The translations under genes and the position numbers were made by a program. Positions 5,201 to 40,449 of a stretch of 64,000 nucleotides of DNA are shown here, one piece after another; within the stretch, counting starts at the first letter, position 1, and the number at the start of each line of letters is the position of its first letter. Below the pieces are notes generated by a model. It made no database searches. It was not told the DNA's origin and saw nothing but the letters and a program-made list of their open reading frames with translations. Location: NCBI GenBank assembly GCA_030615855.1, contig JAUWYL010000002.1, positions 1,526-65,525 of the forward strand. Direction: 5' to 3'. The DNA comes from a bacterium (GTDB taxonomy: Bacteria > UBP18 > UBA7526).

Positions 5201-5201
5201 T

Positions 5202-9550: not shown

Positions 9551-9551
9551 A

Positions 9552-11324: not shown

Positions 11325-11345
11325 TTGACCTCACTATATATTCTG

Positions 11346-11437
11346 GGTTAACGGTTTACCCGTCCTTCACTTACGTTCAGGACTGTTTACCGTCTACCGT
11401 TTTTTCACCGTAAACCGTACACCGTTAACCGTAAACG
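11346..11437. repeat. GTTTAC/GTAAAC heptamer cassette
   Basis: ggtttacc-[gtcct..aggac hairpin]-gtttaccgtctaccgt...accgtaaaccgtacaccgttaaccgtaaac. Confidence 0.8.
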
Positions 11438-12397
11438 TTACTTTTTGTGTTTATATCTTCCGAATCCCGAGCAGGGAATGATGGTGAGTCTTCCCTTCTT
11501 CTCTATCTCATCTAAAAGAAGATTTATTCCTAGGGTGTCGCTTGCCATATGGCCGGCAACGATGATATTGATGTGATGCTTCTCCGCCTCTTTATAATGT
11601 TTCTCAGAGATATGCATGCCCACAATGGTTCCCACCCCGGCAGTAGATAACTTCTCAAATATCTTCTCCGATCCTTCCGTTCCTCCGGTCATATCGACAA
11701 ATACCTTTCCTGCGCTCCTTTCCTTCCTTCCAATGATCACCTTGGGGCCGGCATTGCTCTTGAAGGATTCTTTATATTCTGGGATTCTCTTTAGGATCTC
11801 CATCACTTCTTCCACAGTATCCGGTTTCTCCCTATCCATGACCTTCTTCAAATAGGTGGCTACCATGTTATCTGCCGGGGTATGGATGCACAGGAAGGGG
11901 ATATCCAAAAGCCTTGCCATATCCACAGCCCTCATATAATTGACAGGAAGGACCTTCCTCTCCACTTCCTTTATCCTGGATTCCAATAAATCCTCTGCCA
12001 CATTTATTGGGATGCCATACTGGGATAGGATCTGGGCCTGCATGCCCATTACCTCATAGAAGGAGGCATAGGCCCGGCCAGCAGGATGGTGGGAGAGAGC
12101 CAGGTCTATTTTCTTTCCTTGAGCACGTAATCTATCTGCCAAAAGGAGCTCTCCTTCCCCGATATCTATCCCCACTAAGAGGGTCTTGATCTCTTTATCT
12201 GAATCCCCATAAAGTATCCTGGTATCACTATAGGGATGAGCGAGTTTCTCTAAATCGAAGTCCCTCTTCTCTTCCTTTGCTAACTTATCATATTCTTTCC
12301 TTCGCCTCTTTAGGACTTTCTCTACCTCTCTCTTTCCCCTGGGGTCATTTGCCATTCCCTTTTCCACTGCCAATCTATGGATTCTCTCCAGTTTCAT
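11438..12397 (-). CDS. Nif3/GTP cyclohydrolase 1 type 2-like dinuclear metal protein
   Basis: GID, SHHP, HTPADN, GHMASD motifs; conserved position upstream of dnaG. Confidence 0.8.
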   Translation of the reverse strand: MKLERIHRLAVEKGMANDPRGKREVEKVLKRRRKEYDKLAKEEKRDFDLEKLAHPYSDTRILYGDSDKEIKTLLVGIDIGEGELLLADRLRAQGKKIDLALSHHPAGRAYASFYEVMGMQAQILSQYGIPINVAEDLLESRIKEVERKVLPVNYMRAVDMARLLDIPFLCIHTPADNMVATYLKKVMDREKPDTVEEVMEILKRIPEYKESFKSNAGPKVIIGRKERSAGKVFVDMTGGTEGSEKIFEKLSTAGVGTIVGMHISEKHYKEAEKHHINIIVAGHMASDTLGINLLLDEIEKKGRLTIIPCSGFGRYKHKK

Positions 12398-12505
12398 CCT
12401 GTTAGACCTCCTTTCTCAATTTTTATCCTGCAAATATCCTATTTTTTATAAAAATTACTTTTCCTCCTGTTACACCTGTGATTTATTTAGGTCTAACGGG
12501 ATTCA

Positions 12506-13309
12506 TTAAGATTTACCTCCTTCTTTGACCAATTCCTTTAAGATTTGATCTATCTCAATCTTTTCTATCTCCGCCTTCAATCTCTTTTTAAGTTCTCCCA
12601 TCTCAATCTCATCAATCGATTTTTTTAAGGCTTCTTTGATCTCCCCCACTTTTTCCTTACTAATTCCTTTTTTTACCAGGGTCTCCATCGTCTCTCTATC
12701 CAGTTTTTCTCTCAACATCTCCTTGATTTTATTGCGCACCATGGCTTCCTGGTTTTTCTTGGGAAGGACCGGGACTTTGGGAAAGAACTTTTGATATTCG
12801 AATTTCTTCCCAGAAGGAATTGCCTTGACTACTAAATTGTAAAAGGCTGGGGCAAGGCCCCTTACGGGTTCTACCAGGAGGGTCTTATTGAATTCGTCTT
12901 TCAATCTTTCTTCCATGCTCGGGAGGGGTGAAGAAAGGAGGAGGGAGGCATTTAGGAGGAGACTTAGGATGAGAGCCAGTTTCAAGACTCCGAATCCTCC
13001 TCCTCCAATCATGTCCAGCCACCTTATGGCCAGGAACCTGGTTGCTCGACGCAAGAAGAGGCCCAAGAGATAGCAGGCTCCGGCAACAATAAAGGAGATT
13101 AAAAGGAACCCAACGCCGTTAGCCACCATGACCGGCCAATTGAAGAGGCTTACCAGGTAATTTCCCAAGGTCTGGAAGTGATGGAAGGCAATGATAACTG
13201 CTAAAACAATTCCCAATAACTGAAAGACCTCTCTAAAGAATCCCTTGAATAATCCTCTGATCAGGCCATAGGCTAAAGCGATAACGATTACTCCATCTAA
13301 CCAGTTCAT
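12506..13309 (-). CDS. CvpA (colicin V production) family membrane protein with charged C-terminal extension
   Basis: MNWLD..GLIRGLFKGFFRE, four TM segments, WLDMIGGGGFG. Confidence 0.85.
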   Translation of the reverse strand: MNWLDGVIVIALAYGLIRGLFKGFFREVFQLLGIVLAVIIAFHHFQTLGNYLVSLFNWPVMVANGVGFLLISFIVAGACYLLGLFLRRATRFLAIRWLDMIGGGGFGVLKLALILSLLLNASLLLSSPLPSMEERLKDEFNKTLLVEPVRGLAPAFYNLVVKAIPSGKKFEYQKFFPKVPVLPKKNQEAMVRNKIKEMLREKLDRETMETLVKKGISKEKVGEIKEALKKSIDEIEMGELKKRLKAEIEKIEIDQILKELVKEGGKS

Positions 13310-13435
13310 CTCCCCTCCTTCGCTTTGCTCAGTCGGGAGTGAACAGTGAACAGTGAACAGTTTACAATTCGCGTTGATTCGCGTTGGTTATTTAGGTTCA
13401 TCTGCTTCTGTTATTCGCGTAGATTCGCGTTTTGT
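13310..13435. repeat. Composite repeat cassette overlapping the yqeY 3' end
   Basis: GTGAACA x3, ATTCGCG x4 (two copies inside the yqeY reading frame), CTTCGCTTTGCTCAG next to the cvpA start. Confidence 0.7.
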
Positions 13436-13879
13436 GAGCCTCTCCCTGACTAGCTGATTAACTACCTTACCATCTGCTCTTCCCTTAGTCTTTCCCATGA
13501 CAGCGCCCATTACCTTCCCCATATCCTTCACGTCTTTCGCGCCTATTTCCTCAATCGTCTCCTCTATTATTCTTCCTAGTTCCTCTGGAGAAAACTCTTT
13601 GGGCAGATATTCTTTGATAATCTCGAGTTCTTTGGTTTCTTTCTCCACCAGGTCTTCTCGCTTACCTTTCTTATATTCCTCAATTGACTCTTTTCTCTTC
13701 TTGGCTTCAGTGCTTAAGGCACCAATGAGATCAGACTCTTTCAGTTCCTTATTCTTCCCCTTAGCGATTTCTAGGTTTTTAATTGCTGCTAAGAGAAGGC
13801 GGATGGTGGAGAGCCTCAAGGTATCCTTCTCCCTCAGGGCCTTTCTCATATCCTCATTCAACTTTTCCTTTAGATTCAT
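13388..13879 (-). CDS. yqeY: GatB/YqeY domain protein
   Basis: [39 protein letters not shown]; last ~15 aa derive from repeat DNA. Confidence 0.92.
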
Positions 13880-14133
13880 CTTCTCCCTCTCCCCCTCTCT
13901 CTTCCTTTTCCTCCTCCTCTTCCTCTTTCTATTCTGCCTCTCCTTGCTCGGGCGAGTCTCTTCCTGCGGCGCTTTTCGGCCTCAATCTTCTTTCTCCTTC
14001 TCTTCTCAGAGGGCTTCTCATAATGCCTTCTCTTCTTTGCTTCTGAAAGGATGCCCGATCTCTGAAGTGCTCTCTTGAATCTTCTCAGGGCCTCTTCGAT
14101 AGACTCATGTTCTCTTACTTCTATCTTTGCCAT
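13876..14133 (-). CDS. rpsU: 30S ribosomal protein bS21 with Arg/Gly-rich tail
   Basis: [21 protein letters not shown]; typical HIT-rpsU-yqeY order. Confidence 0.93.
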
Positions 14134-14152
14134 TCAATAAACACCTCCTTCT

Positions 14153-14263
14153 AAACGCGATTTTCTTGTATTGCTTACTGCTTGGGTCCATAGACCGCGA
14201 ATAGTCGCGAATTCTTTTATTCGCGTAGATTCGCGTGTTTTTAGATTCGCGATGATTTGCGTC
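14153..14263. repeat. CGCGAAT/ATTCGCG cassette with GCTTACTGCTTGGGT core
   Basis: acgcgatt..gcttactgcttgggtc..ccgcgaat..tcgcgaat opposed by attcgcg x3 and atttgcg. Confidence 0.75.
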
Positions 14264-14611
14264 TTAGCCGGGAGGCCAACCGAGTTTCCTTCCCCCCAAT
14301 AGATGGAAGTGGATGTGAAAGACCTCCTGGCCAGAATCCGGACCACAGTTGGTTACAATTCTAAAACCACACTGGGCAGTGGATTTTTCCTTAGCTAATT
14401 TATTGGCCACTAAATAGGTATGACCTATTAGCTCCCTATCCTCCTCGCTCAAATCTAAGAGAGTGGAGATATGCTTCTTGGGAATAATGAGAAGATGAAC
14501 TGGCGCTTGAGGGTTGATATCCTTTATGGCGATCAGTCTGTCGTCCTCATATGCTATTTCGCTTGGAATCTCCTTCTTTATAATCTTACAGAAAAGACAT
14601 TCTTTCATCAT
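14264..14611 (-). CDS. hinT: Histidine triad nucleotide-binding protein
   Basis: CLFCKI, DINPQAPVHLLIIPK, GQEVFHIHFHLLGG (HxHxH); start set at ATG 14611. Confidence 0.93.
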   Translation of the reverse strand: MMKECLFCKIIKKEIPSEIAYEDDRLIAIKDINPQAPVHLLIIPKKHISTLLDLSEEDRELIGHTYLVANKLAKEKSTAQCGFRIVTNCGPDSGQEVFHIHFHLLGGRKLGWPPG

Positions 14612-14612
14612 A

Positions 14613-14684
14613 GCCTCGCTATCGCTCGGAAGTAACAAGTAACAGTGAGCAAGTAGTAATTGTTCATTGTTCAATGTTCATTGT
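14613..14684. repeat. GTAACA / TTGTTCA heptamer cassette
   Basis: agtaaca agtaaca gtgagca opposed by ttgttca ttgttca atgttca ttgttca; CCTCGCTATCGCTCGG next to the HIT start. Confidence 0.7.
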
Positions 14685-15977
14685 TCAATGTAATTTTCCT
14701 ATAACATATCCTTTCTTTATCTCACCAATCTTCACTTTAACTATCTCATTTACCAAGTCTTCTGGGCCATTAAAAATTACTCTGATATAGTTATCAGTGA
14801 AACCTGTCAAATAATTATTCCTTTTTCTTTCCACAAGAACCTCTAAGGTTTCACCCAAAAATGACCGGCTAAATTCTTCTTGCATTTTAAAAGATAACTT
14901 TAATAATCTTTCACTCTTTTTCTTAATCTCTTTCTCTCCAGATTTTTTCATAAGTTTTGCGGCAGGTGTTCCGGGACGAGGAGAAAATCTGAAGATGTGC
15001 ATTTTAGAAAACTTCATCTTCTTGATAAAGTTATAGGTATTCCCAAACTCCTCTTCTCCTTCCCCAGGAAAGCCGACCATAATATCGGTAGTAATCGCCA
15101 CCCCTTTAATCTTCTTCCTGATTTTCTCGATTAAATCCTGGTAATAGGAAGAATGGTAAGGGCGATTCATCCTTCTTAAAACTTCATTATCGCCACTCTG
15201 CAAGGGAATATGGAGATGAGAGCAGACCTTGGGAAGCTGGGCAATTCTATCTATTAAGTCCTCATCCAGGTCCTCTGGTTCTATAGAACTCAATCTAATG
15301 CGCCTAAGACCTTCTATCTCATGGGCCTTCTTTAAGAGCAGCGCAAGAGTGAAGCCATTGTTTAGATCCTCTCTCCAGGAGCCTAAACGAATACCGGTTA
15401 AGACGATCTCCTTGAAGCCGTTTCTTACCAGCCCCTCTATTTCTTCTAACGTATCTTTTAGTGGTCGGCTTTTCTGCTTTCCCCGAACATAGGGGATGAT
15501 ACAGTAGGAACAGTAGTTTTCACAGCCATCCTGTATTTTGACGAAGGCTCTGGAATGAGATCGGTGTTTACTTACTGAAAGTGTATCATATCTTGAGCAA
15601 GAGTCGACATCTTCCACAAAGATTTCTGGTTCTGGGTTCTTTTCTCCTCCATTAAGAAAGGAGGCTATGCCATTCTTCTCCCGATTTCCTAAGATTAAGT
15701 CCACCCCTTGAATCTCAGCGATCCTTTGGGGAAACCTCTGAGCATAGCAGCCAGTAACAGCGATGAAGGCCTTCGGGTTTTTTCTTATTACGTTTCTTAT
15801 CTGTTGGCGAGACTTCTGATCGGCCCTATTGGTCACCGTGCAGGTATTGATGATGTAGATATCTGCTCTCTCTTTATTAGAGACTATTCTGCAATCTTTC
15901 GCCAGGGCTTCTCGCATGGCCTGGGTATCGTATTGATTCACCTTACAGCCCAGGGTATGAAAGGCAACGCTTCTCAT
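14685..15977 (-). CDS. mtaB: tRNA t6A methylthiotransferase MtaB
   Basis: TLGCKVNQYD, INTCTVT, KIQDGCENYCSYC (radical SAM), HLHIPLQSG, C-terminal TRAM-like domain; follows rsmE. Confidence 0.92.
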   Translation of the reverse strand: MRSVAFHTLGCKVNQYDTQAMREALAKDCRIVSNKERADIYIINTCTVTNRADQKSRQQIRNVIRKNPKAFIAVTGCYAQRFPQRIAEIQGVDLILGNREKNGIASFLNGGEKNPEPEIFVEDVDSCSRYDTLSVSKHRSHSRAFVKIQDGCENYCSYCIIPYVRGKQKSRPLKDTLEEIEGLVRNGFKEIVLTGIRLGSWREDLNNGFTLALLLKKAHEIEGLRRIRLSSIEPEDLDEDLIDRIAQLPKVCSHLHIPLQSGDNEVLRRMNRPYHSSYYQDLIEKIRKKIKGVAITTDIMVGFPGEGEEEFGNTYNFIKKMKFSKMHIFRFSPRPGTPAAKLMKKSGEKEIKKKSERLLKLSFKMQEEFSRSFLGETLEVLVERKRNNYLTGFTDNYIRVIFNGPEDLVNEIVKVKIGEIKKGYVIGKLH

Positions 15978-16753
15978 CCCATATCACCCAGTTCATACAG
16001 AATCATGGCTAAGGTTATCAATCCCGCAGTTTCGGTGCGCAAGAGTCTTGGTCCTAGGCTTACCGGAACCGCCCCCTTCTCCTTTGCTGCCTCTACTTCT
16101 TCGGAAGTAAATCCTCCCTCTGGGCCGATAAAGACCGTGATCGGTAATCGCCCGCCAGAGGCGAGGTCTCGCCCCTCTGGGGCGGAGTGATCGGTGATTG
16201 ATTTTAAAACTTCTTTCAGAGAAGTAGTTTCCTCTTCTTCCCAAGGGATGAGGTTCAGATTTTCTTCACTTATATTACTGAGTGATTGGACAAAAGTGGT
16301 TATTGCATCGACTTCTGGAATGATTGCTCTACCAGATTGCTTTGCGGCCTCAAGGGCAATCCTCTGCCAGCGATTTCTTCGCGCTCTTACCTTTTCTTCA
16401 TTCAACTTGACAACCGTTCTCTGGGTGATGACTGGAATTATTCTTTTCACTCCCAGTTCCGTGGCCTTCTGGACGATGAGGTCCATCTTATCAGACTTGG
16501 GTAATCCCTGAACCAAGGTTATTTCAATTGGTGGCTCAGTATCTAATTTGCTCTCCTTCAGAATTTTCCCTATTACTTCTTTTTTGCTGGCTTGAATTAT
16601 CTCCGTTAAGTATTCTTTTCCTTTCCCAGTGAAGACTTTTATTTTATCTCTCTCTTTTAGTCTCAAAACCTGGGCGATATGCCTTGCTTCATCCCCCTTT
16701 ATAGTAACCTGGTTTTCCTTAATATCTTTCTCTTCAACAAAGAAACGCCTCAT
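15974..16753 (-). CDS. rsmE: 16S rRNA m3U1498 methyltransferase RsmE
   Basis: [42 protein letters not shown]; carries a short in-frame insert. Confidence 0.96.
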
Positions 16754-17925
16754 TTAAAGGTATCTCTTAACTTATCAAAAACACTTTTCTCCGGCTTTCC
16801 CAGTTTTTCGCCACCTGCTTTGGCAAATTCTCTCAGGATTTCTTTTTGCTTTTCATTGAGTCTGGCAGGTACCTGAACAATAACCTTTACATACTCATCG
16901 CCCTTACCATGGCCATGGAGGGAAGGAACCCCTTTTCCTCTTAATCGGAAAACCCTATCTGTCTGGGTTCCAGGAGGAATCTTCATGGTTGCCTTTCCCT
17001 CTAAGGTGGGAACTTTGATCTCTCCTCCTAAGGTCGCGGTAACGAAATTAAGGGGTACTTCACAGTAGAGGTCGCTTCCCTCTCGTTCAAATATCTTATG
17101 GGGGGTTAGACGAATGGTGACATAGAGGTCACCCGATGGACCACCAAGCTCTCCGGCTTCTCCTTTACCCCTTACCCTGATCGAAGTTCCGGTATCCACA
17201 CCGGAAGGAACCTTCAGAGATATCTTGGAGGCTTTCTTGATCTTTCCTCTACCATGGCACTGGCCGCAGGTCTCTTTAATCACCTCTCCGGCTCCCCGGC
17301 ATTGGGGACAGGTAGTAACAGTAGCGATCTGACCAAATATAGAGCTGGAAACCTGCCTGACCTGCCCCTGGCCCTGGCATTGAAAGCAAGTCTTCTTTCC
17401 CGTTCTTGGCTTTGCTCCGCTTCCCTTGCAGGTAGAACAGGTAACGGTATGATAGATACTTATCTTCTTTTCACTTCCCCTGACGGCTTCTTCCAGGGTA
17501 ATATCCAAGAGATACTCTAAGTCCGCACCCCGTTGGGGACCCCTTGTTGCCCGGGTACCAAAGAATTCTCCAAAAATATCAGAAAAGGTTCCTCCACCAC
17601 TAAAACCTCTCAGGATATCTTCAAAACCCCGACCGCCAAAGATACTCCCAAAGTCGGCCCCCCGAAAGATATCCTGATAAGTGTACTGGCCATCGATACC
17701 CGCATGGCCAAACTGGTCGTAGGTAGTCTTCTTCTCTGAATCAGAGAGAACAGCATAGGCCTCAGATATCTCCTTAAACTTCTCCTCTGCTTTCTTCTTC
17801 TTATCTGGGGGCACCTTATCTGGATGATTCTGAAGAGCCAGGGTTCTATAGGCTTTCTTTATCTCATCTGAGGAGGCATTCCGATCTATGCCCAGTATCT
17901 CATAATAATCACGCTTTATGGTCAC
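16750..17925 (-). CDS. dnaJ: Chaperone DnaJ
   Basis: J domain with HPD, G/F-rich region, four CxxCxGxG repeats. Confidence 0.98.
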
Positions 17926-17941
17926 TTTGTAAATACCCTAT

Positions 17942-18023
17942 CGTTATACCTGTTATTCCCGTTAGACCCGTTATTTCCGTTCAACGGGCAAAACGGGCTC
18001 AACGGACGGAACGGACTAAACGC
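17942..18023. repeat. CCGTT / AACGG cassette
   Basis: cctgtta..cccgtta..cccgtta..tccgttc opposed by aacggg..aacggg..aacgga..aacgga. Confidence 0.7.
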
Positions 18024-20000: not shown

Positions 20001-20105
20001 TCTTTACCTCCTTCGCTTCGCTTACTCGGTAGTTAACCGTTTACCCGCTCGGCTTTTAGCCTCGCTGTTTACCGTACACCGTAAACCGTTAACCGTAAAC
20101 TATGC
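20001..20105. repeat. GTTTAC/GTAAAC heptamer cassette
   Basis: gttaaccgtttacc-[hairpin]-gtttaccgtacaccgtaaaccgttaaccgtaaac; CTTCGCTTCGC motif merged with the dnaK RBS. Confidence 0.8.
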
Positions 20106-20645: not shown

Positions 20646-20691
20646 CTCTTCCTACCTTGCTTCGCTCCTTCTCTTCTACTCTCCTATTCTA

Positions 20692-21720: not shown

Positions 21721-21731
21721 TCCTAGCTCCC

Positions 21732-21758
21732 TTAGCACTCATTGAATGAAAGTGCTAA
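21732..21758 (-). promoter_or_regulatory. CIRCE operator
   Basis: TTAGCACTC-N9-AAGTGCTAA, one mismatch to TTAGCACTC-N9-GAGTGCTAA, between the promoter and hrcA. Confidence 0.95.
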
Positions 21759-21762
21759 CAAT

Positions 21763-21791
21763 AATTTAGCACAAAAAAAATTGCTTGTCAA
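21763..21791 (-). promoter_or_regulatory. Sigma70-type promoter of the hrcA-grpE-dnaK-dnaJ operon
   Basis: TTGACA (21791-21786), 17 bp, TG-n-TAAATT (21768-21763). Confidence 0.8.
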
Positions 21792-21796
21792 GTTTT

Positions 21797-21875
21797 GACA
21801 CGGATTTTTTTATTCTGCCTACTGCTTGGGTCTATGGAACGCGGATTATCACGGATAAATCCGTGCCTATCCGTG
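21797..21875. repeat. CACGGAT/ATCCGTG cassette with GCCTACTGCTTGGGT core
   Basis: acacggatt..gcctactgcttgggtc..cgcggatt..cacggat opposed by atccgtg x2. Confidence 0.75.
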
Positions 21876-23651: not shown

Positions 23652-23663
23652 CTTTTACTCCAA

Positions 23664-23840
23664 TAGTTTACTGTTGAGCGGTGCGTTTCACTTGCCCCGC
23701 TGGTGAATAATTATTATTCAATTTGCCCGCCCTTCGGACTGTTTACCGTTTACAGTAAAAAAACCGCCTTTCGTTTTCACTCAAGACTGGGTGATCCTGA
23801 ATGAAATGAAGGACCGTAAACCGTACACCGTCAACCGTAA
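23664..23840. repeat. GTTTAC/GTAAAC heptamer cassette with inserted segments
   Basis: gtttac..cccttcggactgtttaccgtttacagt...accgtaaaccgtacaccgtcaaccgtaaacc. Confidence 0.75.
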
Positions 23841-23853
23841 ACCCCTTCTCTTA

Positions 23854-25074: not shown

Positions 25075-25114
25075 GATAAACTCCTTTACCTATAGAGTAA
25101 AGCAAGAAGTATAA

Positions 25115-25185
25115 CGGTTACTACGCTTCGCTGTTACTAACGGTTACTACGTCCCGATAAGGTCGGGACTGTTACTAGCGGTTAC
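25115..25185. repeat. GGTTACTA array 3' of the four-helix-bundle gene
   Basis: ggttacta..gttactaacggttacta..gttactagcggttac with embedded CTACGCTTCGCTG and GTCCCGATAAGGTCGGGAC hairpin. Confidence 0.8.
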
Positions 25186-25574
25186 TTTTTGAAGCGGGTC
25201 TTCCATTTCCCTTCTTTGACTAGTTTGGATAATGAATCCAAATAATGATCAATTTGATACTTCGTTTTTCTAAATAAGTCCTTGAGAAGGTTATATTCCT
25301 CTTTGGTGATTAGTTAATCCTCAAAACAATCATCTACATCACCTTCGAGTTCATCTAAAGAGCCTCGACTAATCTTTATTGAATGAGCAAACTCTCCTAC
25401 AGTATCTTTCCTGTATCCTTCTCTGATGTTCTGTTTGGCACTTCTGGCTGCATCCCTCATCTGGCCCACTAACCTCATATGGCTCTTAGGAAATCTTTCT
25501 GTTATGCGGTAGATTAACCGGCGAATCTTACAGATATTCTGATAAAACCTCAGTTTCTCATAGGCTGCTACCAT
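25182..25574 (-). pseudogene. Four-helix-bundle protein (23S rRNA IVS-protein-like family) with an internal TAA
   Basis: YEKLRFYQ..IYRITERFPK..LVGQMRDAARSAKQNIREG..EFAHSIKISRGSLDE; the frame continues after TAA (25314-25316) as LITKEEYNLLKDLFRKTKYQIDHYLDSLSKLVKEGKWKTRFKK*. Confidence 0.82.
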
Positions 25575-25584
25575 TTATTTCCTC

Positions 25585-25650
25585 GTAACCGTTAGTAACC
25601 GTTTAGTAACCCTGCCTGCCGGCAGGCAGGCTTAGTAACCTCTAGTAACC
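25585..25650. repeat. TAGTAACC array 5' of the four-helix-bundle gene
   Basis: GTAACC x5 (four as TAGTAACC), the exact inverse of the downstream array, with perfect palindrome CCTGCCTGCCGGCAGGCAGG (25611-25630). Confidence 0.8.
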
Positions 25651-26213
25651 TATCTTAGGGGTATTTCCATTTCTTCCCAGCTTGCCTCCCTGGGCAGTAG
25701 TTTCCAGACGTTAGAGAGATTTATTCCTAACAGATAACATTTTATTACCGTATTTATTACCTTATGTCCCACGACGATTACCCTCCCTTTGGGATATTTC
25801 TTGGTAATTTCTCTTAAAACGTGAAGTGCTCTTTCGTAAAGGTCCAGGATGCTCTCCCCTCCAGGGGGCCTGACGCTTAAGGGTTCCTCTTCCCATCTTC
25901 GGTAAAGATTCTTATACTTCCTTCTGGCCTCTTTTACCAGAAGCCCTTGCCACTTTCCCTGGTTAAGCTCATTGAGATTAATATCCTTCTTTACTTTCAA
26001 TCTGTGCGCTCGGGCAATGATTCTCGCTGTCTCGTATGAACGGGAGAGTTCACTGGAGTAGATGGCGTCTATCTTCTTTCTTTTCAATTCTTTTGCTATT
26101 CTTTTTGCCTGTCTTAGCCCCTGCTCATTCAATTTTATATCCAGCCAGCCTTGAATCTTATTTATTGGAGTCCAGGCCGTCTGGCCATGGCGTACCAGAA
26201 TAACTTTAGTCAT
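25650..26213 (-). CDS. Histidine phosphatase (PGM superfamily), candidate glucosyl-3-phosphoglycerate phosphatase
   Basis: LVRHGQT, SSELSRSYETA, LNELNQGKWQG, PGGES, VVGH; adjacent to gpgS. Confidence 0.85.
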   Translation of the reverse strand: MTKVILVRHGQTAWTPINKIQGWLDIKLNEQGLRQAKRIAKELKRKKIDAIYSSELSRSYETARIIARAHRLKVKKDINLNELNQGKWQGLLVKEARRKYKNLYRRWEEEPLSVRPPGGESILDLYERALHVLREITKKYPKGRVIVVGHKVINTVIKCYLLGINLSNVWKLLPREASWEEMEIPLR

Positions 26214-26403
26214 CTTATTTTCCTTTCCCTCTTATTACGTCCTACCTAAAGATTAGCCTACAAAGTAACAAGGTTCCTCCGATGGAATCGGAGGGCTACC
26301 TTATTCTACCAACAAATTCAACAAAAATCAAAAGAGGTTTCTGAAAAAAGTTTCAGAGCCCTCTTGGAGATTTCTGACTTTTTCAGAAATCTCCAAAAAA
26401 GGC

Positions 26404-26433
26404 TTGACAAATGGAGATTTAGTGTGCTATTAT
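26404..26433 (+). promoter_or_regulatory. Sigma70-type promoter for the small basic protein gene
   Basis: TTGACA (26404-26409), 18 bp, extended -10 TG-C-TATTAT (26428-26433), then AGGAGAGGAGG RBS. Confidence 0.7.
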
Positions 26434-26463
26434 TAAACTAAATTTAAGGAGAGGAGGGAAAAA

Positions 26464-26574
26464 GTGGCGAAAAGAAAGAAGAGGGCGAAGAGGAAAAAGA
26501 AGGTTGTGAAAAGAAAGAAGGTTGTGAGGAGAAAGAAGAAAAAGGCAAGGAAGAGAAAGAAGAAAAAAAGATAA
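26464..26574 (+). CDS. 36-aa Lys/Arg-rich histone/protamine-like protein
   Basis: GTG start after a strong RBS: MAKRKKRAKRKKKVVKRKKVVRRKKKKARKRKKKR*; has its own promoter and a downstream hairpin; below the ORF-track cutoff. Confidence 0.75.
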   Translation: MAKRKKRAKRKKKVVKRKKVVRRKKKKARKRKKKKR

Positions 26575-26590
26575 TCAAGACTTAGATAGA

Positions 26591-26665
26591 GAAAGCCCCG
26601 CACTTTTTTAATATTCATTTCTTTAGGTTGCTACTTTGAATAGATAAAAGGTGCGGGGTTCTTTT
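26591..26665. terminator. Hairpin between convergent genes; arms match the GIY-YIG element ends
   Basis: CCCCGCACTTTTT (26596-26608) ... AAAAGGTGCGGGG (26646-26658), A-rich on the left and T-rich on the right; could act as a bidirectional terminator. Confidence 0.6.
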
Positions 26666-26668
26666 TTA

Positions 26669-27658
26669 TTAGGATCTCTTTTGCTTCTTCCTTTTCTCCC
26701 GATAGGCTTTCACAGTAATCATAGGGGGGCGCTCCACGATCTTTTTCTCAAAGGTCTCAAAAGAATACCTTTTCCCCTTCCTTTTAATAAGCCTCATGCT
26801 GGGATTTAATTCTTCTAACATCTTTAGTTTCCACAGATCCCCAGCACGGTTCAGAGCCACCTGCAGGATGGAGAAGGCCATCTTAGACAGGGTAGGGAGG
26901 GTATGATTCCTGTGGATGCGCTGATCCAGATCTACCTGGGCAATGGAGTTTAAGCCAAACTTCTTATAGATGTCAATTAATAGTCCCGTCTCTACTCCGT
27001 AACCGATGAAGAAGGGAACTTTTTCTAATATTTCTCTCCTCCCGGCATACTCCCCGCTCAAGGGTTGGATGAATCCCGAGAGATCAGGAAAGAAAAGATT
27101 AAAGACAGGACGAAGCATGAGCGCTGTTACTCTCCCTCCTCCAGAAGGCCTTAGTGTCTTCTCTGTCTCTAACTTTATTGGCCTCTCATAGAAAGCCTTT
27201 ACATAGCCTATCCTGCTATTGGTTAGAAGTGGACCGAGTAATCCATAGACGAACTTGGGATGGATGTTCTTGATATCGGCATCGAGCCACAAGATGATAT
27301 CTCCTTTTAGGAGATAGAGGCTCTTCCAAAGATTCTCTCCTTTGCCAGAATAGATTCCTTCCTCTTTTAAATAATCGTCTGTCAAATAGACATCTGCTCC
27401 ATACTTTGCTGCAATCTCTCTGGTCTTATCCGTTGAGCCAGAATCCACGATGGCTAATTCATCTATTAAGTGGTGCTTATCCATGAGTTCACTCTTGATC
27501 ACGATGAGCTCGGTGGCAATGGTCTCTGCCTCATTCAGGGTGGGAAGGCCTACGCTTATGGTTAGGTTCTTCTTCTTCTTTAACCTCACCAGTTCCTTAA
27601 TATCCGAGAACTGGGAGTGATGGAAGGTTCTATTTTTAAACCATTTTTCTACTTTCAT
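26669..27658 (-). CDS. gpgS: Glucosyl-3-phosphoglycerate synthase
   Basis: LPTLNEAETI, DSGSTD, GKGENLWKSL, DADI, GGGRVT, QPLSGEYAGRR, YGVETGLLID motifs of GT81 GpgS. Confidence 0.88.
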   Translation of the reverse strand: MKVEKWFKNRTFHHSQFSDIKELVRLKKKKNLTISVGLPTLNEAETIATELIVIKSELMDKHHLIDELAIVDSGSTDKTREIAAKYGADVYLTDDYLKEEGIYSGKGENLWKSLYLLKGDIILWLDADIKNIHPKFVYGLLGPLLTNSRIGYVKAFYERPIKLETEKTLRPSGGGRVTALMLRPVFNLFFPDLSGFIQPLSGEYAGRREILEKVPFFIGYGVETGLLIDIYKKFGLNSIAQVDLDQRIHRNHTLPTLSKMAFSILQVALNRAGDLWKLKMLEELNPSMRLIKRKGKRYSFETFEKKIVERPPMITVKAYREKRKKQKRS

Positions 27659-27689
27659 AAATACACCTTACTATATTCAACCAAATAGA

Positions 27690-28000
27690 AATTTGAAACA
27701 AACGCATTAAATTTCTAATGTCTAATATCCAATTTCCAACAAGTTAAAAAGCATACCAGGATAGACGCCAGACAAGCTGGCTAAATTCTTCGCGATGCTC
27801 TGAATGCAGCAAATCAGTAGGCAGAATATCAGGATATCAGAACATCAGAAAATTTTTCTTTAGAGCCTAATACTCTGGTCTTCTGATACCCTTTCTACTG
27901 ATACCCTGATTCTCTGATCCGCTTATTTCCTTTTGGGGTATTAGGCATTGAGAATTTTATTGGAAATTAGGAATTGGAAATTAAGTCCAGTAGGATTTAG
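27690..28000. repeat. Nested repeat cassette (outer AATTTCCAA/TTGGAAATT, inner ATCAG/CTGAT)
   Basis: aatttctaatgtctaatatccaatttccaa ... atcaggatatcagaacatcaga ... tctgatac..ctgatac..ctgat..ctgat ... ttggaaattaggaattggaaatt. Confidence 0.75.
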
Positions 28001-28003
28001 TAA

Positions 28004-29245
28004 TTAAACCTCTTCCCACCTTTCGATTAAGTAGGACTTCTCCTTCTCAAAGGCCTTGGCTTGGGCCTCAACCACCCTCTCCGCCTCCTTACTGCTCATC
28101 CTCAAGGTCTCCTGAGCAAAGGAGCCGGTCTTGGCAAAGTAGAGAGGAGCAAAAAGGCCCAAAACATCCTCTGGGGAGATCTCTTTCTGATGATAAGCAA
28201 CGGCAAAGTCATAGACAATCCTCGCCCAGAGATCGAGAGGGAACTTAAAGTTTATTATCTCTTTGGTATGGGCCAGCTCCCGTACCGCCCGGAAGTTATC
28301 CTCAGGCATGATCTCTCTCCAGATGTCATGACAGTCGGAGTAGTGATGAGCAAGCTGGCCGATCATCCCCTCCACATCTACTAAAAGCGCCTCGGGTTCC
28401 ACAATCTGGCGATGATCGTAGATCCTCACTGGTTTAGAGCCCTTTACTTGCATCCAGTTATATTCATACTTCTCCATCAGTTTGAATAATGTTCCTACCA
28501 CTTCCCGAAACATAGGACCCAACTTTAGAGAAGGCTCTTTGGGATTGTGAATCTTTGTTCCTAATGCTACCTGGCATATCCTATATCCCTTATTTATGGC
28601 CTCAGTGGTCATCCAGCTATCGATGCCGAAGCGAGCCACATCCCCCATCCAGACATCCTCTATCAGGTAGGCCTTGGCTAAGTCGCCAGAGAGGGCGAAG
28701 TCCCCACCCATGGGCTGTCTGATCCTCAGGCCATATAAGGCCCTGGTTAAGGGATAGGTGATGTTATTGGATATCGTTCCGTCGTATTTATGGCGAAGAT
28801 AGTAAGGAGTAACATAGTCATACTTCCCGCTTAAAACGGGATGGACCATGAGCTTTATCCAGAGGGGGGTGATGCTTCTTAAATCAGAATCCAAGGTTAG
28901 AACGACCTTTGCTCCTAATATCTTGCTTGCTTCGAAGACAGATCTGAAGGCGGTCCCCTTTCCTGGAAGGCCCCTATAGATGAAGACCATCTTATCCACT
29001 CCCTTGGGAACTGGGGCAGCGATGATGATCTCCCGGGTATCGTCTAAGGAGCCACCGTCAGAGACCAGGATGACCTTCTTATACTTAGGGAAATACTTGG
29101 CCAATCCTTCTGCTGCCTGCTGGATGACATAGCCGATGGTATCCTCATCATAGTAACAGGGAATACCGACCACGATGTCTGCTCTCTTTATCTTGGTGCG
29201 CAGCCTATGCCTGGTCTCATTGCGTAGAGCCACTTTATATCGCAC
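28004..29245 (-). CDS. Single-step glucosylglycerate/mannosylglycerate synthase-like glycosyltransferase
   Basis: ADIVVGIP, SDGGSLDDT, PGKGTAFR, DSDLRSITP, RHKYDGTI, RQPMGGDFALS, RFGIDSW, GTKIH. Confidence 0.78.
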   Translation of the reverse strand: MRYKVALRNETRHRLRTKIKRADIVVGIPCYYDEDTIGYVIQQAAEGLAKYFPKYKKVILVSDGGSLDDTREIIIAAPVPKGVDKMVFIYRGLPGKGTAFRSVFEASKILGAKVVLTLDSDLRSITPLWIKLMVHPVLSGKYDYVTPYYLRHKYDGTISNNITYPLTRALYGLRIRQPMGGDFALSGDLAKAYLIEDVWMGDVARFGIDSWMTTEAINKGYRICQVALGTKIHNPKEPSLKLGPMFREVVGTLFKLMEKYEYNWMQVKGSKPVRIYDHRQIVEPEALLVDVEGMIGQLAHHYSDCHDIWREIMPEDNFRAVRELAHTKEIINFKFPLDLWARIVYDFAVAYHQKEISPEDVLGLFAPLYFAKTGSFAQETLRMSSKEAERVVEAQAKAFEKEKSYLIERWEEV

Positions 29246-29265
29246 GCTTCCCTCCTTTACAGAAA

Positions 29266-29387
29266 TGTTTACCGTTTACCAGTCCCGACAGCTGTCGGGA
29301 CTGTTTACCGTTTACGGTAAAAGATCGTACACCGTAAACCGTTTCAGCCAAAGGCTGATCCGCCTATGGCGGAAACCGTAAACCTTT
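29266..29387. repeat. GTTTAC/GTAAAC heptamer cassette with hairpins
   Basis: gtttaccgtttacc-GTCCCGACAGCTGTCGGGAC-gtttaccgtttacggt...accgtaaaccg-TCAGCCAAAGGCTGA-TCCGCCTATGGCGGA-accgtaaacc. Confidence 0.8.
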
Positions 29388-30800
29388 TTAGATGCTGAAA
29401 GCCAACTCCTTTCCCGCTTCCATAATCTTTTCTAACTTTCCTTCTTCGTCTGATTCAGCATAGATTCTAATGATGGGTTCTGTCCCCGAGGTGCGAAACA
29501 AGAGCCAGCTGTTATCCTTTAAAATAAACTTTATTCCGTCTAAAGCGTCTATCTGCCTTACTTCAATATCTGCCAATTCTTTTGGTGGATTTTTCTTTAA
29601 GGTAGAAATCAAGATGTCTCTTTTATCCAGAGGATACTCGCTATCGATCCTTTTATAGAGATAGGTGCCGAACTCTTTTGCCATCTCCTCTTGAATCTGA
29701 GCCAATGGTTTCTTCTTTAAGGCTAACATCTCGAGAAGTAACAGGCCAGATAAGAGGCCATCTCTATCCGGGACATGATTCTTAACCCCGATTCCTCCCG
29801 ACTCCTCTCCTCCGATCAGGATATCCTCTTCCAGCATTAATTCACAGATATATTTAAATCCTACCGGGGTCTTATAGATTTCTCTCTTATGTTTTTCGGC
29901 TATCTTATTTAGCAGAGAGGTAGTGGATATGGTCTTCACTATCCCTCCCGACCATCCCCTGCTCTCAATCAAATGAAGAGTAAGTAGAGAAAGAACCTGA
30001 TGGGGATTGACAAAGTTGCCTTCACTATCCATGACTCCTAACCGATCCCCATCCCCATCTGTGGCCAGTCCTAAATCTGCCTTCTCTTCCTTTATCTTAT
30101 CTATTAAGGCGCCTAAGTTCTGAGCAATGGGCTCGGGGTTCACTCCCCTGAAAGAGGGGTTCTCCTCGCCCCGAATAGTGATGACCTGACACTTCCCTTC
30201 TTTTAAGACCTGGGCAGTATAATCCTTTCCTGCACCATACATGGAATCAACAATCACTTTAAGCGACGCTTCTTTTATTAATTCCAAATTGACGAAGGAT
30301 TTCAGAAACTGGAGATAGGGCGGAGTAAAATCTATGGTCTGGATAAGTCCTTTCTTCTCTCCTTCCTCAAAATCCATCTCTTGCGGTTTATTCTTATACA
30401 AGAAACTCTCGATCTTCTTAGTTGTTGTATCATCTGCGCTTCCCGCATACTCTCCTTTGAACTTTATTCCATTATATTGAAAGGGGTTATGGCTGGCAGT
30501 AATCATTATCCCCCCAGCAGCCTTCCTTTCCTTTATGGCGAAGCAGACACAGGGAACGGGCTGAATCCTATCGCTTAAGATAACCCTTATTCCATTCCCG
30601 GCTAGGACAGAGGCTACAAGATGGGCATACTCCTTAGAGAGAAAACGAGCATCATATCCTATGACGATCTCCCTTTCTCCGATCTTCTCTCCTTTAAGAT
30701 AATCTGCCATGGCCTGAGAAACGATCTTAACATTCTCAAAGGTGAAATCCTCTGAGATCACCCCCCTCCAGCCATCAGTACCAAACTTTATTTTTCCCAT
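29388..30800 (-). CDS. Phosphoglucomutase/phosphomannomutase
   Basis: FGTDGWRG, TASHNP (active Ser), DGDGDR, GEESGG, RTSGTEP. Confidence 0.95.
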   Translation of the reverse strand: MGKIKFGTDGWRGVISEDFTFENVKIVSQAMADYLKGEKIGEREIVIGYDARFLSKEYAHLVASVLAGNGIRVILSDRIQPVPCVCFAIKERKAAGGIMITASHNPFQYNGIKFKGEYAGSADDTTTKKIESFLYKNKPQEMDFEEGEKKGLIQTIDFTPPYLQFLKSFVNLELIKEASLKVIVDSMYGAGKDYTAQVLKEGKCQVITIRGEENPSFRGVNPEPIAQNLGALIDKIKEEKADLGLATDGDGDRLGVMDSEGNFVNPHQVLSLLTLHLIESRGWSGGIVKTISTTSLLNKIAEKHKREIYKTPVGFKYICELMLEEDILIGGEESGGIGVKNHVPDRDGLLSGLLLLEMLALKKKPLAQIQEEMAKEFGTYLYKRIDSEYPLDKRDILISTLKKNPPKELADIEVRQIDALDGIKFILKDNSWLLFRTSGTEPIIRIYAESDEEGKLEKIMEAGKELAFSI

Positions 30801-30894
30801 CGTTTACCGTTTACCTGCTCCCCTGATTCATCGGGGTCGCTGTTTACCGTTTACGGTAAAAATACCGTACACCGTAAACCGTTAACCGTAAATC
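30801..30894. repeat. GTTTAC/GTAAAC heptamer cassette
   Basis: gtttaccgtttacc-[cccctgattcatcgggg]-gtttaccgtttacggt...accgtacaccgtaaaccgttaaccgtaaa. Confidence 0.8.
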
Positions 30895-31974
30895 TTATTC
30901 TGTGTATTTCTTTAGTTTTGGATTCTTGCCGAGTTTATGGACCAGTTCCTTTACTTCCTGGGCCCTATCTTTAGGGCAGATTAAGGTAGCATCTTCTGTT
31001 GAGATGATGATTAAATCTTTTATACCGATTGTTCCCACCATTCCTTTGCCACAGAGAATAATGGAATCTCTGGTATCTAAAGAAGAAACTTCTCCCTTGG
31101 TAATATTCCCTTCCTTATCTTTAGGCAGGATCCTTTCCAGGGCCTGCCAGTTCCCCACATCGTCCCAGAGATAATCTGCCTTCACCACCAGAGTATTCTT
31201 CGCCTTTTCCATTATACCATAATCTATGGATACTTTGTCCAATTTCTTATAGACTCTCTCAATTACTTTCTTCTCTTTTGAGGTGCCCAAGGCTTTTTGA
31301 ATTTCTAAAAGGCCTCTGTATAGTTTGGGCATATATTTCCTCATCGCTTCCAAAATGACAGAGGTTCTCCAGATAAACATCCCGCTATTCCAGAGGTACT
31401 TGCCACTCTTCATAAACTTCAATGCTTTTTTCCTATCTGGCTTTTCCGTAAACCTCCTCACTCTATGTACTAACCGTAAACCGTAAACCGTGAACCGTAA
31501 ACCCATCTCTATATACCCATATCCCGTCTCTGGCCTAGTGGGCATGATTCCCATGGTTACTAAACTATCTGTATCCTGGGCAGTCTTAATAGCCACTTTT
31601 AAGATCTTCAAAAACTTCCTCGGTTCACCAATGACATGATCTGCGGGTAAGACAACCATAACGCTATCTGGGTTTTCATTCTCTACTAATATCGCCCCCA
31701 GGCCAACCGCTGCTGCCGTATCTCGACCAAAGGGTTCAAAAACAATGTTCTTAGTTGGAATTTTGGGAATTTCGTTCTCGATTCTTGGCCCTAATCCCTT
31801 TCGAGCAATAATCAGAATATTCCTTGATTTAACCAAAGGACTTATTCTTTTTACCGTTTCATAGATCATGCTCCTCTTAGAAGCGATGGGCAAAAGCTGC
31901 TTCGGTGTTTTAATCCTTGACTTGGGCCAGAACCTTTCTCCCCTCCCCCCAGCAATAATGACTGCTTTAACCAT
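30895..31974 (-). CDS. manC: Mannose-1-phosphate guanylyltransferase
   Basis: AGGRGERFWPKSR, PKQLL, EPFGRDTA, PADH, ETGYGYIE, FTEKP, WNSGMF, SIDYGIME, WDDVG; in-frame repeat insert. Confidence 0.94.
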   Translation of the reverse strand: MVKAVIIAGGRGERFWPKSRIKTPKQLLPIASKRSMIYETVKRISPLVKSRNILIIARKGLGPRIENEIPKIPTKNIVFEPFGRDTAAAVGLGAILVENENPDSVMVVLPADHVIGEPRKFLKILKVAIKTAQDTDSLVTMGIMPTRPETGYGYIEMGLRFTVYGLRLVHRVRRFTEKPDRKKALKFMKSGKYLWNSGMFIWRTSVILEAMRKYMPKLYRGLLEIQKALGTSKEKKVIERVYKKLDKVSIDYGIMEKAKNTLVVKADYLWDDVGNWQALERILPKDKEGNITKGEVSSLDTRDSIILCGKGMVGTIGIKDLIIISTEDATLICPKDRAQEVKELVHKLGKNPKLKKYTE

Positions 31975-31976
31975 GC

Positions 31977-32090
31977 CACCCTCACTTCGTTCGGAAGTTT
32001 ACAGTTTACCCGCCCTTCGGGCTGTTTACCGTTAACCGTAAACCTTCTTTTACCACCGTAAACCGTACACCGTTAACCGTAAACCCCCTG
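31977..32090. repeat. GTTTAC/GTAAAC heptamer cassette
   Basis: CTCACTTCGTTCGG-gtttacagtttacc-[gcccttcgggc]-gtttaccgttaaccgtaaacc...accgtaaaccgtacaccgttaaccgtaaacc. Confidence 0.8.
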
Positions 32091-33296: not shown

Positions 33297-33304
33297 ACCT
33301 CCTC

Positions 33305-40429: not shown

Positions 40430-40449
40430 TTCCTTCTCTTGCAGCTACT

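Follow-up and report, generated by a model that had tools for sequence, protein, structure and literature searches.

Heptamer Repeat Cassettes at Operon Junctions of a Bacterial Genome Are Probably ORF-Less Relatives of 23S rRNA Intervening Sequences

INTRODUCTION

The intervening sequences (IVSs) of 23S rRNA genes are the described elements that most resemble six repeat cassettes, built of ACCGTNN heptamers and lying between protein-coding genes, in a 64-kb stretch of the genome of an uncultured bacterium (GTDB lineage Bacteria; UBP18; UBA7526; assembly GCA_030615855.1, contig JAUWYL010000002.1, forward-strand positions 1,526 to 65,525). This whole stretch of 64,000 nt is referred to below as the window. 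In Coxiella burnetii, the IVS is a selfish element in helix 45 that contains an open reading frame (ORF) for the protein S23p (PMC4990558). The ORF is preceded by AGAAGA and three tandem heptamers (GACAGAT), the number of which varies between strains, and it is decaying; the element is excised by RNase III, which cuts at the first repeat (PMC4990558). In Xanthomonas, S23p forms a homopentameric toroid (Lin 2006, as cited in PMC4990558).

Heptamer arrays have also been described outside rRNA genes. In the 5' untranslated region (UTR) of the hmw genes of Haemophilus influenzae, (ATCTTTC)n is one arm of a long hairpin that is processed by RNase III (PMC12721329). Arrays of TAACTGA standing before start codons in Beggiatoaceae, cyanobacteria, and Bacteroidetes were described without an explanation (PMC4679880), and among the long simple repeats of bacteria, those with heptamer units are the most frequent according to Mrazek 2007, as cited in the same paper. 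The comparisons reported here make it probable that the six cassettes are IVS-type selfish elements that lack their ORF and lie between the genes of operons.

RESULTS AND DISCUSSION

Anatomy of the six cassettes

The six gene junctions at which the initial annotation had reported ACCGTNN heptamers all carry a cassette (Table 1), and the motif is heavily overrepresented. Window-wide, ACCGTNNACCGT has 21 matches, all on the plus strand, versus 0.02 expected from dinucleotide-preserving shuffles, which also gave expectations of 0.11 each for GTTTACCGT (8 found) and ACCGTAAAC (17 found). The matches fall in six intergenic spacers and in one array inside a manC-like ORF. On the coding strand the heptamers read ACGGTNN, and each cassette starts 1 to 11 nt past the upstream stop codon with GTTT(ACGGTNN)x4. 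This array A, GTTTAC-G-GTTAAC-G-GTGTAC-G-GTTTAC-G-GT (four heptamers), is followed by an A/T spacer, arm B [(ACCGTAA)ACGGTAAACAG, two units ending in AAACAG], a GC-rich hairpin whose sequence varies among copies, arm C (GGGTAAACNGTWAAC, two units), and mostly a Shine-Dalgarno (SD) sequence and the start codon, which confirms the layout first proposed, with a four-unit arm after the stop codon and a GTTTACC arm plus hairpin toward the next start. Cassette 3 contains two internal insertions. The unit variants occur in the order TT, TA/TG, GT, TT across copies, loci, and metagenome-assembled genomes (MAGs) of different phylum labels. The arrays are not the homogeneous products of slippage known as long simple sequence repeats (LSSRs) or short tandemly repeated repetitive (STRR) sequences, in that the order of their variants is fixed and shared between loci and MAGs; slippage adds or removes units only secondarily.

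The array inside the manC-like ORF also has four ACGGTNN units. It encodes GLRFTVYGLRL in frame and replaces DSPSSLPASRLP, a variable loop of the ManC of a related contig (L251; loci retrieved in this study are denoted by L and a number), with no change in the length of the alignment, as though the array had been written over the codons of a variable surface loop. Between the last arm and the start codon, a motif CCGAGCGAWAGCGAGG(AGG) recurs at three places in the window (Table 1) and in spacers of L242, L243, L265, and L273, and this module appears to supply the SD of the downstream host gene. The hairpin of the cassette in L200 and L211 consists of this sequence.

PF05635 genes in cassettes of the same family

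Cassettes of the ACGGT family with an ORF between array A and arm B were found in L246 to L249, L252, L275, L273, and L025. The ORF (labelled IVP) lies between hrcA and grpE in L246 to L249 and downstream of rsmE in L252, where it is broken by a duplication. In L275, a contig of 53 kb, it (IVP2) is one of three such genes within 18.6 kb, and in L273 it lies in a gas-vesicle operon, where three further cassettes, without an ORF, are nearly identical to the window copies. The encoded proteins belong to PF05635 (23S-rRNA intervening-sequence protein, S23p), above the curated cutoff, and to TIGR02436 ("four helix bundle protein"). Array A abuts the ATG of the ORF in L246, L252, L273, L275, and L025. 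The tandem heptamers upstream of the ORF vary in number (window versus L252), as in the Coxiella IVS. All copies stand between protein-coding genes and none in helix 25 or 45 of 23S rRNA. The six window copies hold no PF05635 ORF between their arms and are therefore treated as ORF-less derivatives of an IVS-type element, not as full members.

Several modules are common to ORF-less and ORF-bearing copies. An AGAAGG-containing spacer is shared between ORF-bearing copies and cassette 6, whose spacer GGTAAAAGAAGG is similar to the stretch past the stop codon of the ORF (compared with L252 and L246), and a CCCGAAGGGCGGG hairpin is shared between ORF-bearing copies and cassettes 3 and 6. The GTCCTGAACGTA..GGAC hairpin of cassette 1 is nearly identical in L273. 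Arm C of cassette 3 is split by a 50-nt module that recurs in L252 and L275, in both next to PF05635 ORFs. A second unit family, TATCAGA, which forms an ORF-less cassette in the window (Table 1), flanks two intact PF05635 genes in L275. The simplest reading is that the six cassettes descend from such gene cassettes by loss of the ORF.

The ACGGT-type PF05635 protein has homologues at 58 to 97% identity, those at 58 to 72% being from MAGs labelled Omnitrophota, Phycisphaerae, and Actinomycetota. The protein is thus far closer to those of named phyla than is GrpE (about 50%), which suggests horizontal movement. In the few cases seen, the unit type tracks the PF05635 subfamily: ACGGT arrays accompany proteins of the FDFEKLEVY type (L246, L252, L275, L273, and L025), and TATCAGA arrays accompany the 143- to 151-aa proteins of L275.

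Comparison with known systems

The cassettes resemble the 23S IVSs with an S23p ORF (Coxiella, Leptospira) in that inverted arms enclose a PF05635 ORF, a purine-rich AGAAG(A/G) and a variable number of tandem heptamers stand directly upstream of it, the ORF decays, the distribution is sporadic and suggests horizontal spread, and the element lies in sense orientation in a transcribed region. They differ in lying between the protein genes of operons and not in rRNA, in being ORF-less in the six window copies, and in possessing a side hairpin, often together with an SD for the gene that follows. In addition, their first arm is a direct and not an inverted array, so that it pairs with single mismatches, and excision by RNase III, proven for the IVS, can only be supposed for the cassettes.

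The hmw hairpin likewise consists of a transcribed heptamer array serving as a hairpin arm, the unit number of which changes (PMC12721329). Unlike the dispersed cassettes, however, it is confined to one 5'-UTR locus, where it functions in phase variation; it comprises at least 10 units, all identical, with a G-rich arm as their partner, and no gene is associated with it. STRR, LSSR, and TAACTGA arrays share with the cassettes the short 7-nt tandem units, the intergenic position often upstream of start codons, and the patchy occurrence across phyla (PMC4679880), and in plasmids of Nostocales such arrays flank PF05635 genes. STRR and TAACTGA arrays were described as plain direct arrays of one unit, whereas the cassettes are composites in which unit variants follow a fixed order and a hairpin accompanies two complementary arms.

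Repetitive extragenic palindromes (REPs), bacterial interspersed mosaic elements (BIMEs), and miniature inverted-repeat transposable elements (MITEs, such as Correia, ERIC, and BOX) are also small, ORF-less, dispersed, intergenic within operons, cotranscribed, and foldable; they are module mosaics as well, and their presence differs between relatives. Unlike REPs and BIMEs, none of the six cassette sequences has a GTAG-headed palindrome, and no gene for a REP-associated tyrosine transposase (RAYT/Y1) was seen among the ORFs covered by the Pfam scan (30 minus-strand ORFs of 1 to 34.4 kb; the ORFs of 34.5 to 64 kb lay outside it), in which no transposase was seen at all. Compared with MITEs, the cassettes have arms of tandem 7-nt units, and no target-site duplication was seen by eye at the six cassette flanks. 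The cassette ends, GTTTAC...GTAAAC, are inverted, and filled and empty junctions differ over the whole spacer. The ORF-bearing parent encodes a four-helix-bundle protein, in contrast to the transposases associated with REPs and MITEs. Finally, the RNase III sites between the early genes of phage T7 are imperfect stems in a single orientation at polycistronic junctions, the cutting of which leaves stable hairpin ends; the likeness is a functional analogy with no sequence relation, and cleavage of the cassettes is presumed.

Insertion and turnover among relatives

Syntenic loci were fetched through homologues of GrpE. L250 (GrpE identity of 73%) and L251 (65%, on a 121-kb contig) have tight junctions where the window has cassettes: the grpE/dnaK and cvpA/nif3 junctions are 1 to 2 and 3 to 15 nt long, respectively, in both, and the GT4 glycosyltransferase/lepA junction is 6 nt long in L251. 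Relatives with 79 to 92% GrpE identity have the same cassette, a variant in unit number, or cassettes of other unit families. For example, L252 (92%) has the grpE/dnaK cassette of the window with one extra 14-nt unit, and L247 has the GT4/lepA cassette in an uninterrupted version. In L242, L243, and L246, the same junctions carry the same design built of different 7- to 9-nt units, including AAGCGAC, AGTAAGA, AAATGCA, CAGTGAT/ATCACTG, and GGTAAGG/CCTAACC. Comparison with these relatives shows the cassettes to be insertions with fast turnover. In L242, a second kind of small gene, a GxxExxY/PDDEXK_3 gene (TIGR04256, positions 2028 to 2399), lies between grpE and dnaK adjoining another repeat cassette.

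Cassettes can also be inverted. L200 and L211 are orthologous copies of a palindromic sister subfamily whose flanks align in one orientation and whose cassette interiors align in the other, the interior having been inverted in place between the terminal repeats TTGCGTTTAC...GTAAACGCAA. The two loci and L135 were the related loci in a metagenome scan with ACSGTNNACGGTAAACAG, which returned mostly chance matches or other heptamer families. A scan of a genome collection with ACCGTNN x4, a loose pattern, returned generic heptamer microsatellites of many phyla, and only L025 was truly related. A very common motif in unrelated soil and freshwater metagenome contigs (L134, L143, L145, L167, L190, L210, L220, and others) was (GTGAACG)n, a GC hairpin, and (CGTTCAC)n, the stems of which are heptamer arrays and the design principle of which is cassette-like.

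Folding and polarity

As coding-strand RNA, the six spacers fold at -30 to -63 kcal/mol, with z-scores of -2.4 to -7.4 relative to shuffles (cassette 1, -37 kcal/mol and -3.0; cassette 4, -63.2 kcal/mol and -7.4; cassette 5, z-score of -4.2). The predicted GUUUAC/GUAAAC blocks separated by G-G mismatches were seen in the minimum-free-energy folds. Trimmed cassettes and those of relatives mostly share one Y-shaped topology, in which array A is divided between the two arms, its first half being paired with arm C and its second half with arm B, in 6-bp GUNNAC blocks with single mismatches between them, and the variable hairpin forms a side branch. In a module alignment of nine copies, 88% of the cells pair in this A:(B+C) register, versus 20 to 42% when the register is slid. 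The inverted arms can form an extended stem around the insert, as in IVS-type elements. The periodically bulged stem suggested at the outset is a fair description of these folds that covariation does not prove. The window-type and L200-type arrays consist of the same hexamers in the same order, with the spacer base coordinately G in one and C in the other. By analogy with the processed relatives, a role of the cassettes in RNA processing is plausible. A G-quadruplex formed by the four GG tracts of array A was also considered and dropped, as ORF-bearing copies have one ACCGT unit in the array.

The fixed polarity claimed for the cassettes holds for all seven arrays of the window, including the one in manC, which are in the sense orientation, and for all 18 window-type arrays in the window and related contigs (a partly manual count). 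It is attributed to the parent element, a gene cassette that points the same way as its host operon. All ORFs of at least 200 aa in the window are on the minus strand, and the plus-strand GC skew is negative across the entire window, so the coding strand is the G-rich and presumably leading strand; the directions of transcription and replication are therefore confounded throughout.

PF05635 genes and heptamer arrays in other bacteria

A hidden Markov model (HMM) built from five cassette PF05635 proteins was run on about 240 loci fetched solely for heptamer arrays. It found nine further PF05635 ORFs, eight of which were next to or between arrays, and five of the array-adjoining ORFs had a complementary array on the other side. 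For a sample unselected for repeats, one PF05635 protein was compared by tblastn with PLSDB plasmids, which gave 23 records, mostly of Nostocales, 12 of which were fetched. Arrays of period 7 or 8 stood within 200 nt of the ORF in 11 of the 12 plasmid genes, with 19 arrays in 4.8 kb of flank versus 7 in 39 kb elsewhere, an enrichment of about 20-fold. Examples are GTAGGGA/TCCCTAC between nrdB and nrdA, GGAGATA/TATCTCC between cas10 and cmr3, GGGAAAA/TTTTCCC between parA and parB, and a long GGTGACA array between cas6 and cas4. The twelfth case (L262) is a genuine helix-45 IVS of an Azospirillum 23S rRNA gene with inverted, heptamer-like arms of looser CAGAGGA/CGGATGA units, below the threshold for arrays. 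Arms flanking PF05635 ORFs form a duplex better than shuffles in six of seven cases (z-scores of -2.7 to -7.7). Apart from the Coxiella IVS, no literature linking PF05635 genes to heptamer or STRR arrays was found in a search that had subscription journals outside its reach.

The plasmid loci (L253 to L264) are from Nostoc, Calothrix, Anabaena, Picosynechococcus, Pseudanabaena, Geminocystis, and Gemmatirosa, and their PF05635 genes lie within nrdB-nrdA, toxin-export, cas10-cmr3, cas6-cas4, and parA-parB pairs, with STRR-like arrays. The PF05635 gene of L261 is separated from its upstream array by an ISL3 transposase that landed there.

Proposed element and points against it

The best explanation of these data, which we favor with some confidence, is that the cassettes are ORF-less elements of the IVS type that fold in the transcript and are most likely cut by RNase III. 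Their identity as ORF-less IVS-type elements is, by itself, quite probable, whereas cleavage of the folded arms has somewhat less than an even chance and is argued from the studied relatives. Read in operon sense, the full element would comprise the four GTNNAC-G heptamers of array A, a spacer rich in A, and a small PF05635 gene with its ATG; behind the gene would stand arm B (two units, with AAACAG at the end), a GC hairpin, the two units of arm C, and often an SD module serving the downstream host gene. The product of the gene, S23p, is an Avd-like four-helix bundle. Such elements would insert between cotranscribed genes, including pairs only 1 to 6 nt apart in relatives, and could later lose the ORF, change their unit number, gain extra hairpins, and invert in place. 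In the transcript, the halves of array A and arms C and B would form a helix of about 25 bp in 6-bp blocks with a side hairpin, which would place the upstream stop codon beside the downstream SD. A cut by RNase III would then split the operon transcript at the junctions and leave a stem on each new end. Cleavage, benefit to the host, and mode of movement are deductions in this scheme.

Several observations weigh against this explanation. The direction of evolution was derived from decayed ORFs, and the genes could instead have entered preexisting cassettes. Compensatory changes between the arms, which the initial annotation had proposed to look for, are absent, with zero double changes in the nine-copy alignment, because the copies are about 94% identical in their modules; two positions are mismatched in eight of the nine copies, and the stems have a mismatch at every seventh position. 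Support for the stem comes from complementarity and from the comparison of families, and none from covariation. The arms of L275 do not beat shuffles. Folds of the opposite strand have weaker energies, yet similar z-scores for three of the six copies, which is compatible with a hairpin in DNA. The palindromic sister subfamily is present in both orientations, and some cyanobacterial plasmids have the PF05635 gene opposite to its neighbors, so cotranscription with host genes is not universal. Lastly, cleavage by RNase III in this lineage is extrapolated from the Coxiella IVS and the hmw hairpin.

Alternative explanations

The strict 7-nt period would be accounted for if a protein read the units. 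A PF05635 ring, or another multimeric RNA- or single-stranded-DNA-binding protein, might take one heptamer per subunit, as TRAP and HutP do with spaced triplets, and the ORF-less cassettes would then be targets in trans through which translation or stability of the downstream gene is controlled. The toroid reported for Xanthomonas S23p (Lin 2006, through PMC4990558), the arrays of three to five units that abut the ATG of PF05635 genes without an ordinary SD, the match between array type and subfamily in the few cases seen, and the want of another explanation for the period agree with this. However, the array sequences differ widely (GTAGGGA, GGAGATA, AAAAGCT, GGCAGAA, and others), some of them flanking PF05635 proteins that all match one query at only 32 to 45% identity; the second arm is in most cases complementary to the first, which would be expected if the arms pair but not if a strand is read; S23p was judged not to be made in Coxiella (PMC4990558); and the PF05635 gene of the window is broken. 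Docking is unlikely, and so is the more general proposition that PF05635 proteins are sequence-specific readers of tandem 7-nt units, that array, gene, and inverted array form one widespread mobile module, and that ORF-less copies are its trans-acting targets. It is likewise improbable that the cassettes act at the level of DNA only, as selfish or neutral palindromes spread by recombination, slippage, and hairpin events, with an orientation set by the replication strand and no role in RNA. The inversion between orthologous flanks in L200 and L211, unit numbers that differ between close relatives, entire intergenic regions swapped between relatives, the overwritten part of manC, the GC skew that renders the two polarities inseparable, the short contigs of the clade (one ending in an array), and the frequency of heptamers among long simple repeats of bacteria (cited in PMC4679880) would all fit. 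Local slippage, however, would not yield an order of unit variants conserved across copies and MAGs, the cassettes retain an SD for the downstream gene and avoid terminators, and both experimentally studied relatives act in RNA.

Translation coupling has a smaller chance still. The stem could keep the downstream start near terminating ribosomes, or act as an SD-independent landing pad, and so restore expression after insertion. The two hexamers paired in the outer stem are the first past the stop codon and the last ahead of the SD or start, the same junctions are 1 to 6 nt long in relatives, cassette 5 ends 1 nt from the ATG without an SD, many cassettes are followed by the SD module CCGAGCGAWAGCGAGG, and a translational role was proposed for the TAACTGA repeats just upstream of start codons in Beggiatoaceae (PMC4679880). 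Against coupling, it has no experimental precedent, most copies have an ordinary SD 5 to 30 nt farther on that would work without a bridge, and the arrays around PF05635 genes in rRNA are left unaccounted for. The weakest rival, and a very improbable one, is that the cassettes are promoters, terminators, or attenuators that subdivide operons, as their intergenic position, GC hairpins, and single orientation might suggest. No cassette contains a sigma-70-like -35/-10 pair or the GC hairpin plus U run of an intrinsic terminator, and such sites are no commoner in the region than in shuffles. Standard signals are in use here, in that a clear TTGACA-17-TAAATT sigma-70 promoter with a CIRCE-like palindrome precedes hrcA. 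The cassettes lie within conserved operons such as hrcA-grpE-dnaK-dnaJ, even between grpE and dnaK.

Other unit families and genes of the window

Many other junctions of the window (4257 to 40570) carry cassettes of the same design built of other 7- to 9-nt units, including CACGGAT/ATCCGTG, GCCCGTT/AACGGG, CGCGAAT/ATTCGCG, ACTGTTC, CGCAGAT, AAATGCA/TTTGATT, GGTTACTA, and TATCAGA, with complementary units often close to the next SD. A strict scan for periods of 7, 8, and 9 found 20 arrays in the window versus 0.55 in shuffles, 11 of them in the noncoding 10%. The GGTTACTA family supplies a gene-holding sister cassette (Table 1), in which the flanking GGTTACTA/TAGTAACC duplex has an energy of -53.7 kcal/mol and a z-score of -4.5. 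Its ORF, the only PF05635 gene of the window, matches both Pfam and NCBIfam TIGR02436; an in-frame TAA follows codon 86 and the frame runs for about 40 more codons, to about position 25188, so it is probably a pseudogene. Two further arrays, of period 8 (AACAAGTT) and period 7 (AAAAATC), lie within long called ORFs, being either in-frame insertions like that of manC or spacers through which the ORF calls run.

The window is an ordinary bacterial chromosome segment with housekeeping genes; a phage origin was rejected, given these genes and no match in 50,697 phage records. Along the minus strand, the genes named by Pfam are two DUF3108 proteins, orf124, manC, phosphomannomutase (PMM), two GT2 glycosyltransferases, histidine phosphatase, the PF05635 protein, GT4 glycosyltransferase, lepA, hrcA, grpE, dnaK, dnaJ, rsmE, mtaB, HIT, rpsU, yqeY, cvpA, NIF3-like, dnaG, and rpoD, followed by two tRNAs, RNase H, RNase P RNA, mraZ, mraW, ftsL, and a penicillin-binding protein. 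An Rfam scan of the window at gathering thresholds found only the RNase P RNA and the two tRNAs, with no rRNA and no match to a cassette. The nearest GrpE relatives (73 to 92% identical) are from short metagenomic contigs, named phyla appearing only at about 50%, and an identical GrpE was found only on a 3.4-kb Logan contig, the end of which falls in the array.

The G+C content declines steadily along the window, starting at about 0.50 at low coordinates and reaching about 0.35 past 50 kb, the low-GC half contains very long ORFs, and the ACGGT cassettes are restricted to 11 to 32 kb. The RNase H gene has an N-terminal DUF433 domain, and the RNase P RNA just downstream of it is followed by CGCGGAT/ATCTGCG repeat units. 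The sole convincing plus-strand gene candidate in the first half of the window encodes a highly basic 36-aa peptide (MAKRKKRAKRKKKVVKRKKVVRRKKKKARKRKKKKR), immediately upstream of which stands the best sigma-70 match of the scanned region; in the relatives L243 and L251, small genes are called on the opposite strand at this place.

Table 1. Positions of repeat cassettes, arrays, and other features in the window
Feature	Location	Strand	Parts or remarks
Cassette 1, nif3-like/dnaG junction	11345..11436	-	array A 11407-11436; spacer 11401-11406; arm B 11383-11400; hairpin 11362-11383; arm C 11345-11361
Cassette 2, grpE/dnaK junction	20007..20100	-	array A 20071-20100; arm B 20065-20075, overlapping array A; hairpin 20047-20065; arm C 20032-20046; SD module CCGAGTAAGCGAAGCGAAGGAGG 20007-20029
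Cassette 3, GT4/lepA junction	23666..23842	-	array A 23813-23842; inserted 49-nt hairpin 23764-23812; arm B 23739-23756; hairpin 23725-23738; arm C 23666-23728, split by ~50-nt module
Cassette 4, PMM/GT2 junction	29267..29383	-	array A split, 29373-29383 and 29324-29344; extra hairpins 29360-29372 and 29345-29357; arm B 29301-29318; 10-bp hairpin 29280-29303; arm C 29267-29280
Cassette 5, manC/PMM junction	30802..30892	-	array A 30864-30892; arm B 30840-30857; hairpin 30815-30839; arm C 30802-30815, abutting ATG
Cassette 6, orf124/manC junction	31976..32084	-	array A 32055-32084; spacer GGTAAAAGAAGG 32043-32054; arm B 32022-32043; hairpin 32009-32021; arm C 31997-32011; SD module 31976-31994
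Four-unit ACGGTNN array in manC-like ORF	31473-31502	-	in frame
CCGAGCGAWAGCGAGG(AGG) motif	20007-20029, 31976-31994, 13310-13340		between last arm and start codon
ORF-less TATCAGA/TCTGATA cassette	27807..27920	-	sense arrays 27866-27920; complementary arrays 27807-27850
Gene-holding GGTTACTA cassette	25109..25650	-	GGTTACTA arrays and hairpin 25585-25650; PF05635 ORF 25314-25574; complementary TAGTAACC arrays and hairpin 25109-25186
Example spacers with other unit families	33297-33600, 21739-21875, 17926-18023, 14134-14263, 13310-13387, 9475-9551, 40430-40570		
Arrays within long called ORFs	35259-35329, 40732-40983		periods 8 and 7
RNase P RNA	5198-5606		
RNase H gene	5692-6327	-	
Promoter-like sequence	26404-26433		
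36-aa basic peptide ORF	26464-26574	+	
1430-aa ORF	40571-44863		example of very long ORFs

Implications

Three puzzles, the nature of the 23S IVS, the function of PF05635 genes, and the STRR-type heptamer arrays, may concern one class of elements. The arrangement of array, PF05635 gene, and inverted array occurs outside rRNA in CRISPR-cas, nrd, par, ruv, gas-vesicle, and hrcA-dnaK operons, and the module leaves ORF-less copies able to fill many junctions of a genome. The cassettes thereby link short 7-base arrays to a protein family of unknown function that is found in many bacteria, and they offer testable substrates in a 90-nt cassette and a 125-aa PF05635 protein. They also explain the fragmented assemblies of this uncultured lineage. 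Should PF05635 proteins prove to be readers of the units, one module would underlie the 23S IVSs, many cyanobacterial STRR arrays, and the cassettes at operon junctions, and would let the element or its host act posttranscriptionally at operon junctions by the dozen. If the stems are cleaved, a selfish element would cut the operons of this lineage into separately stabilized pieces.

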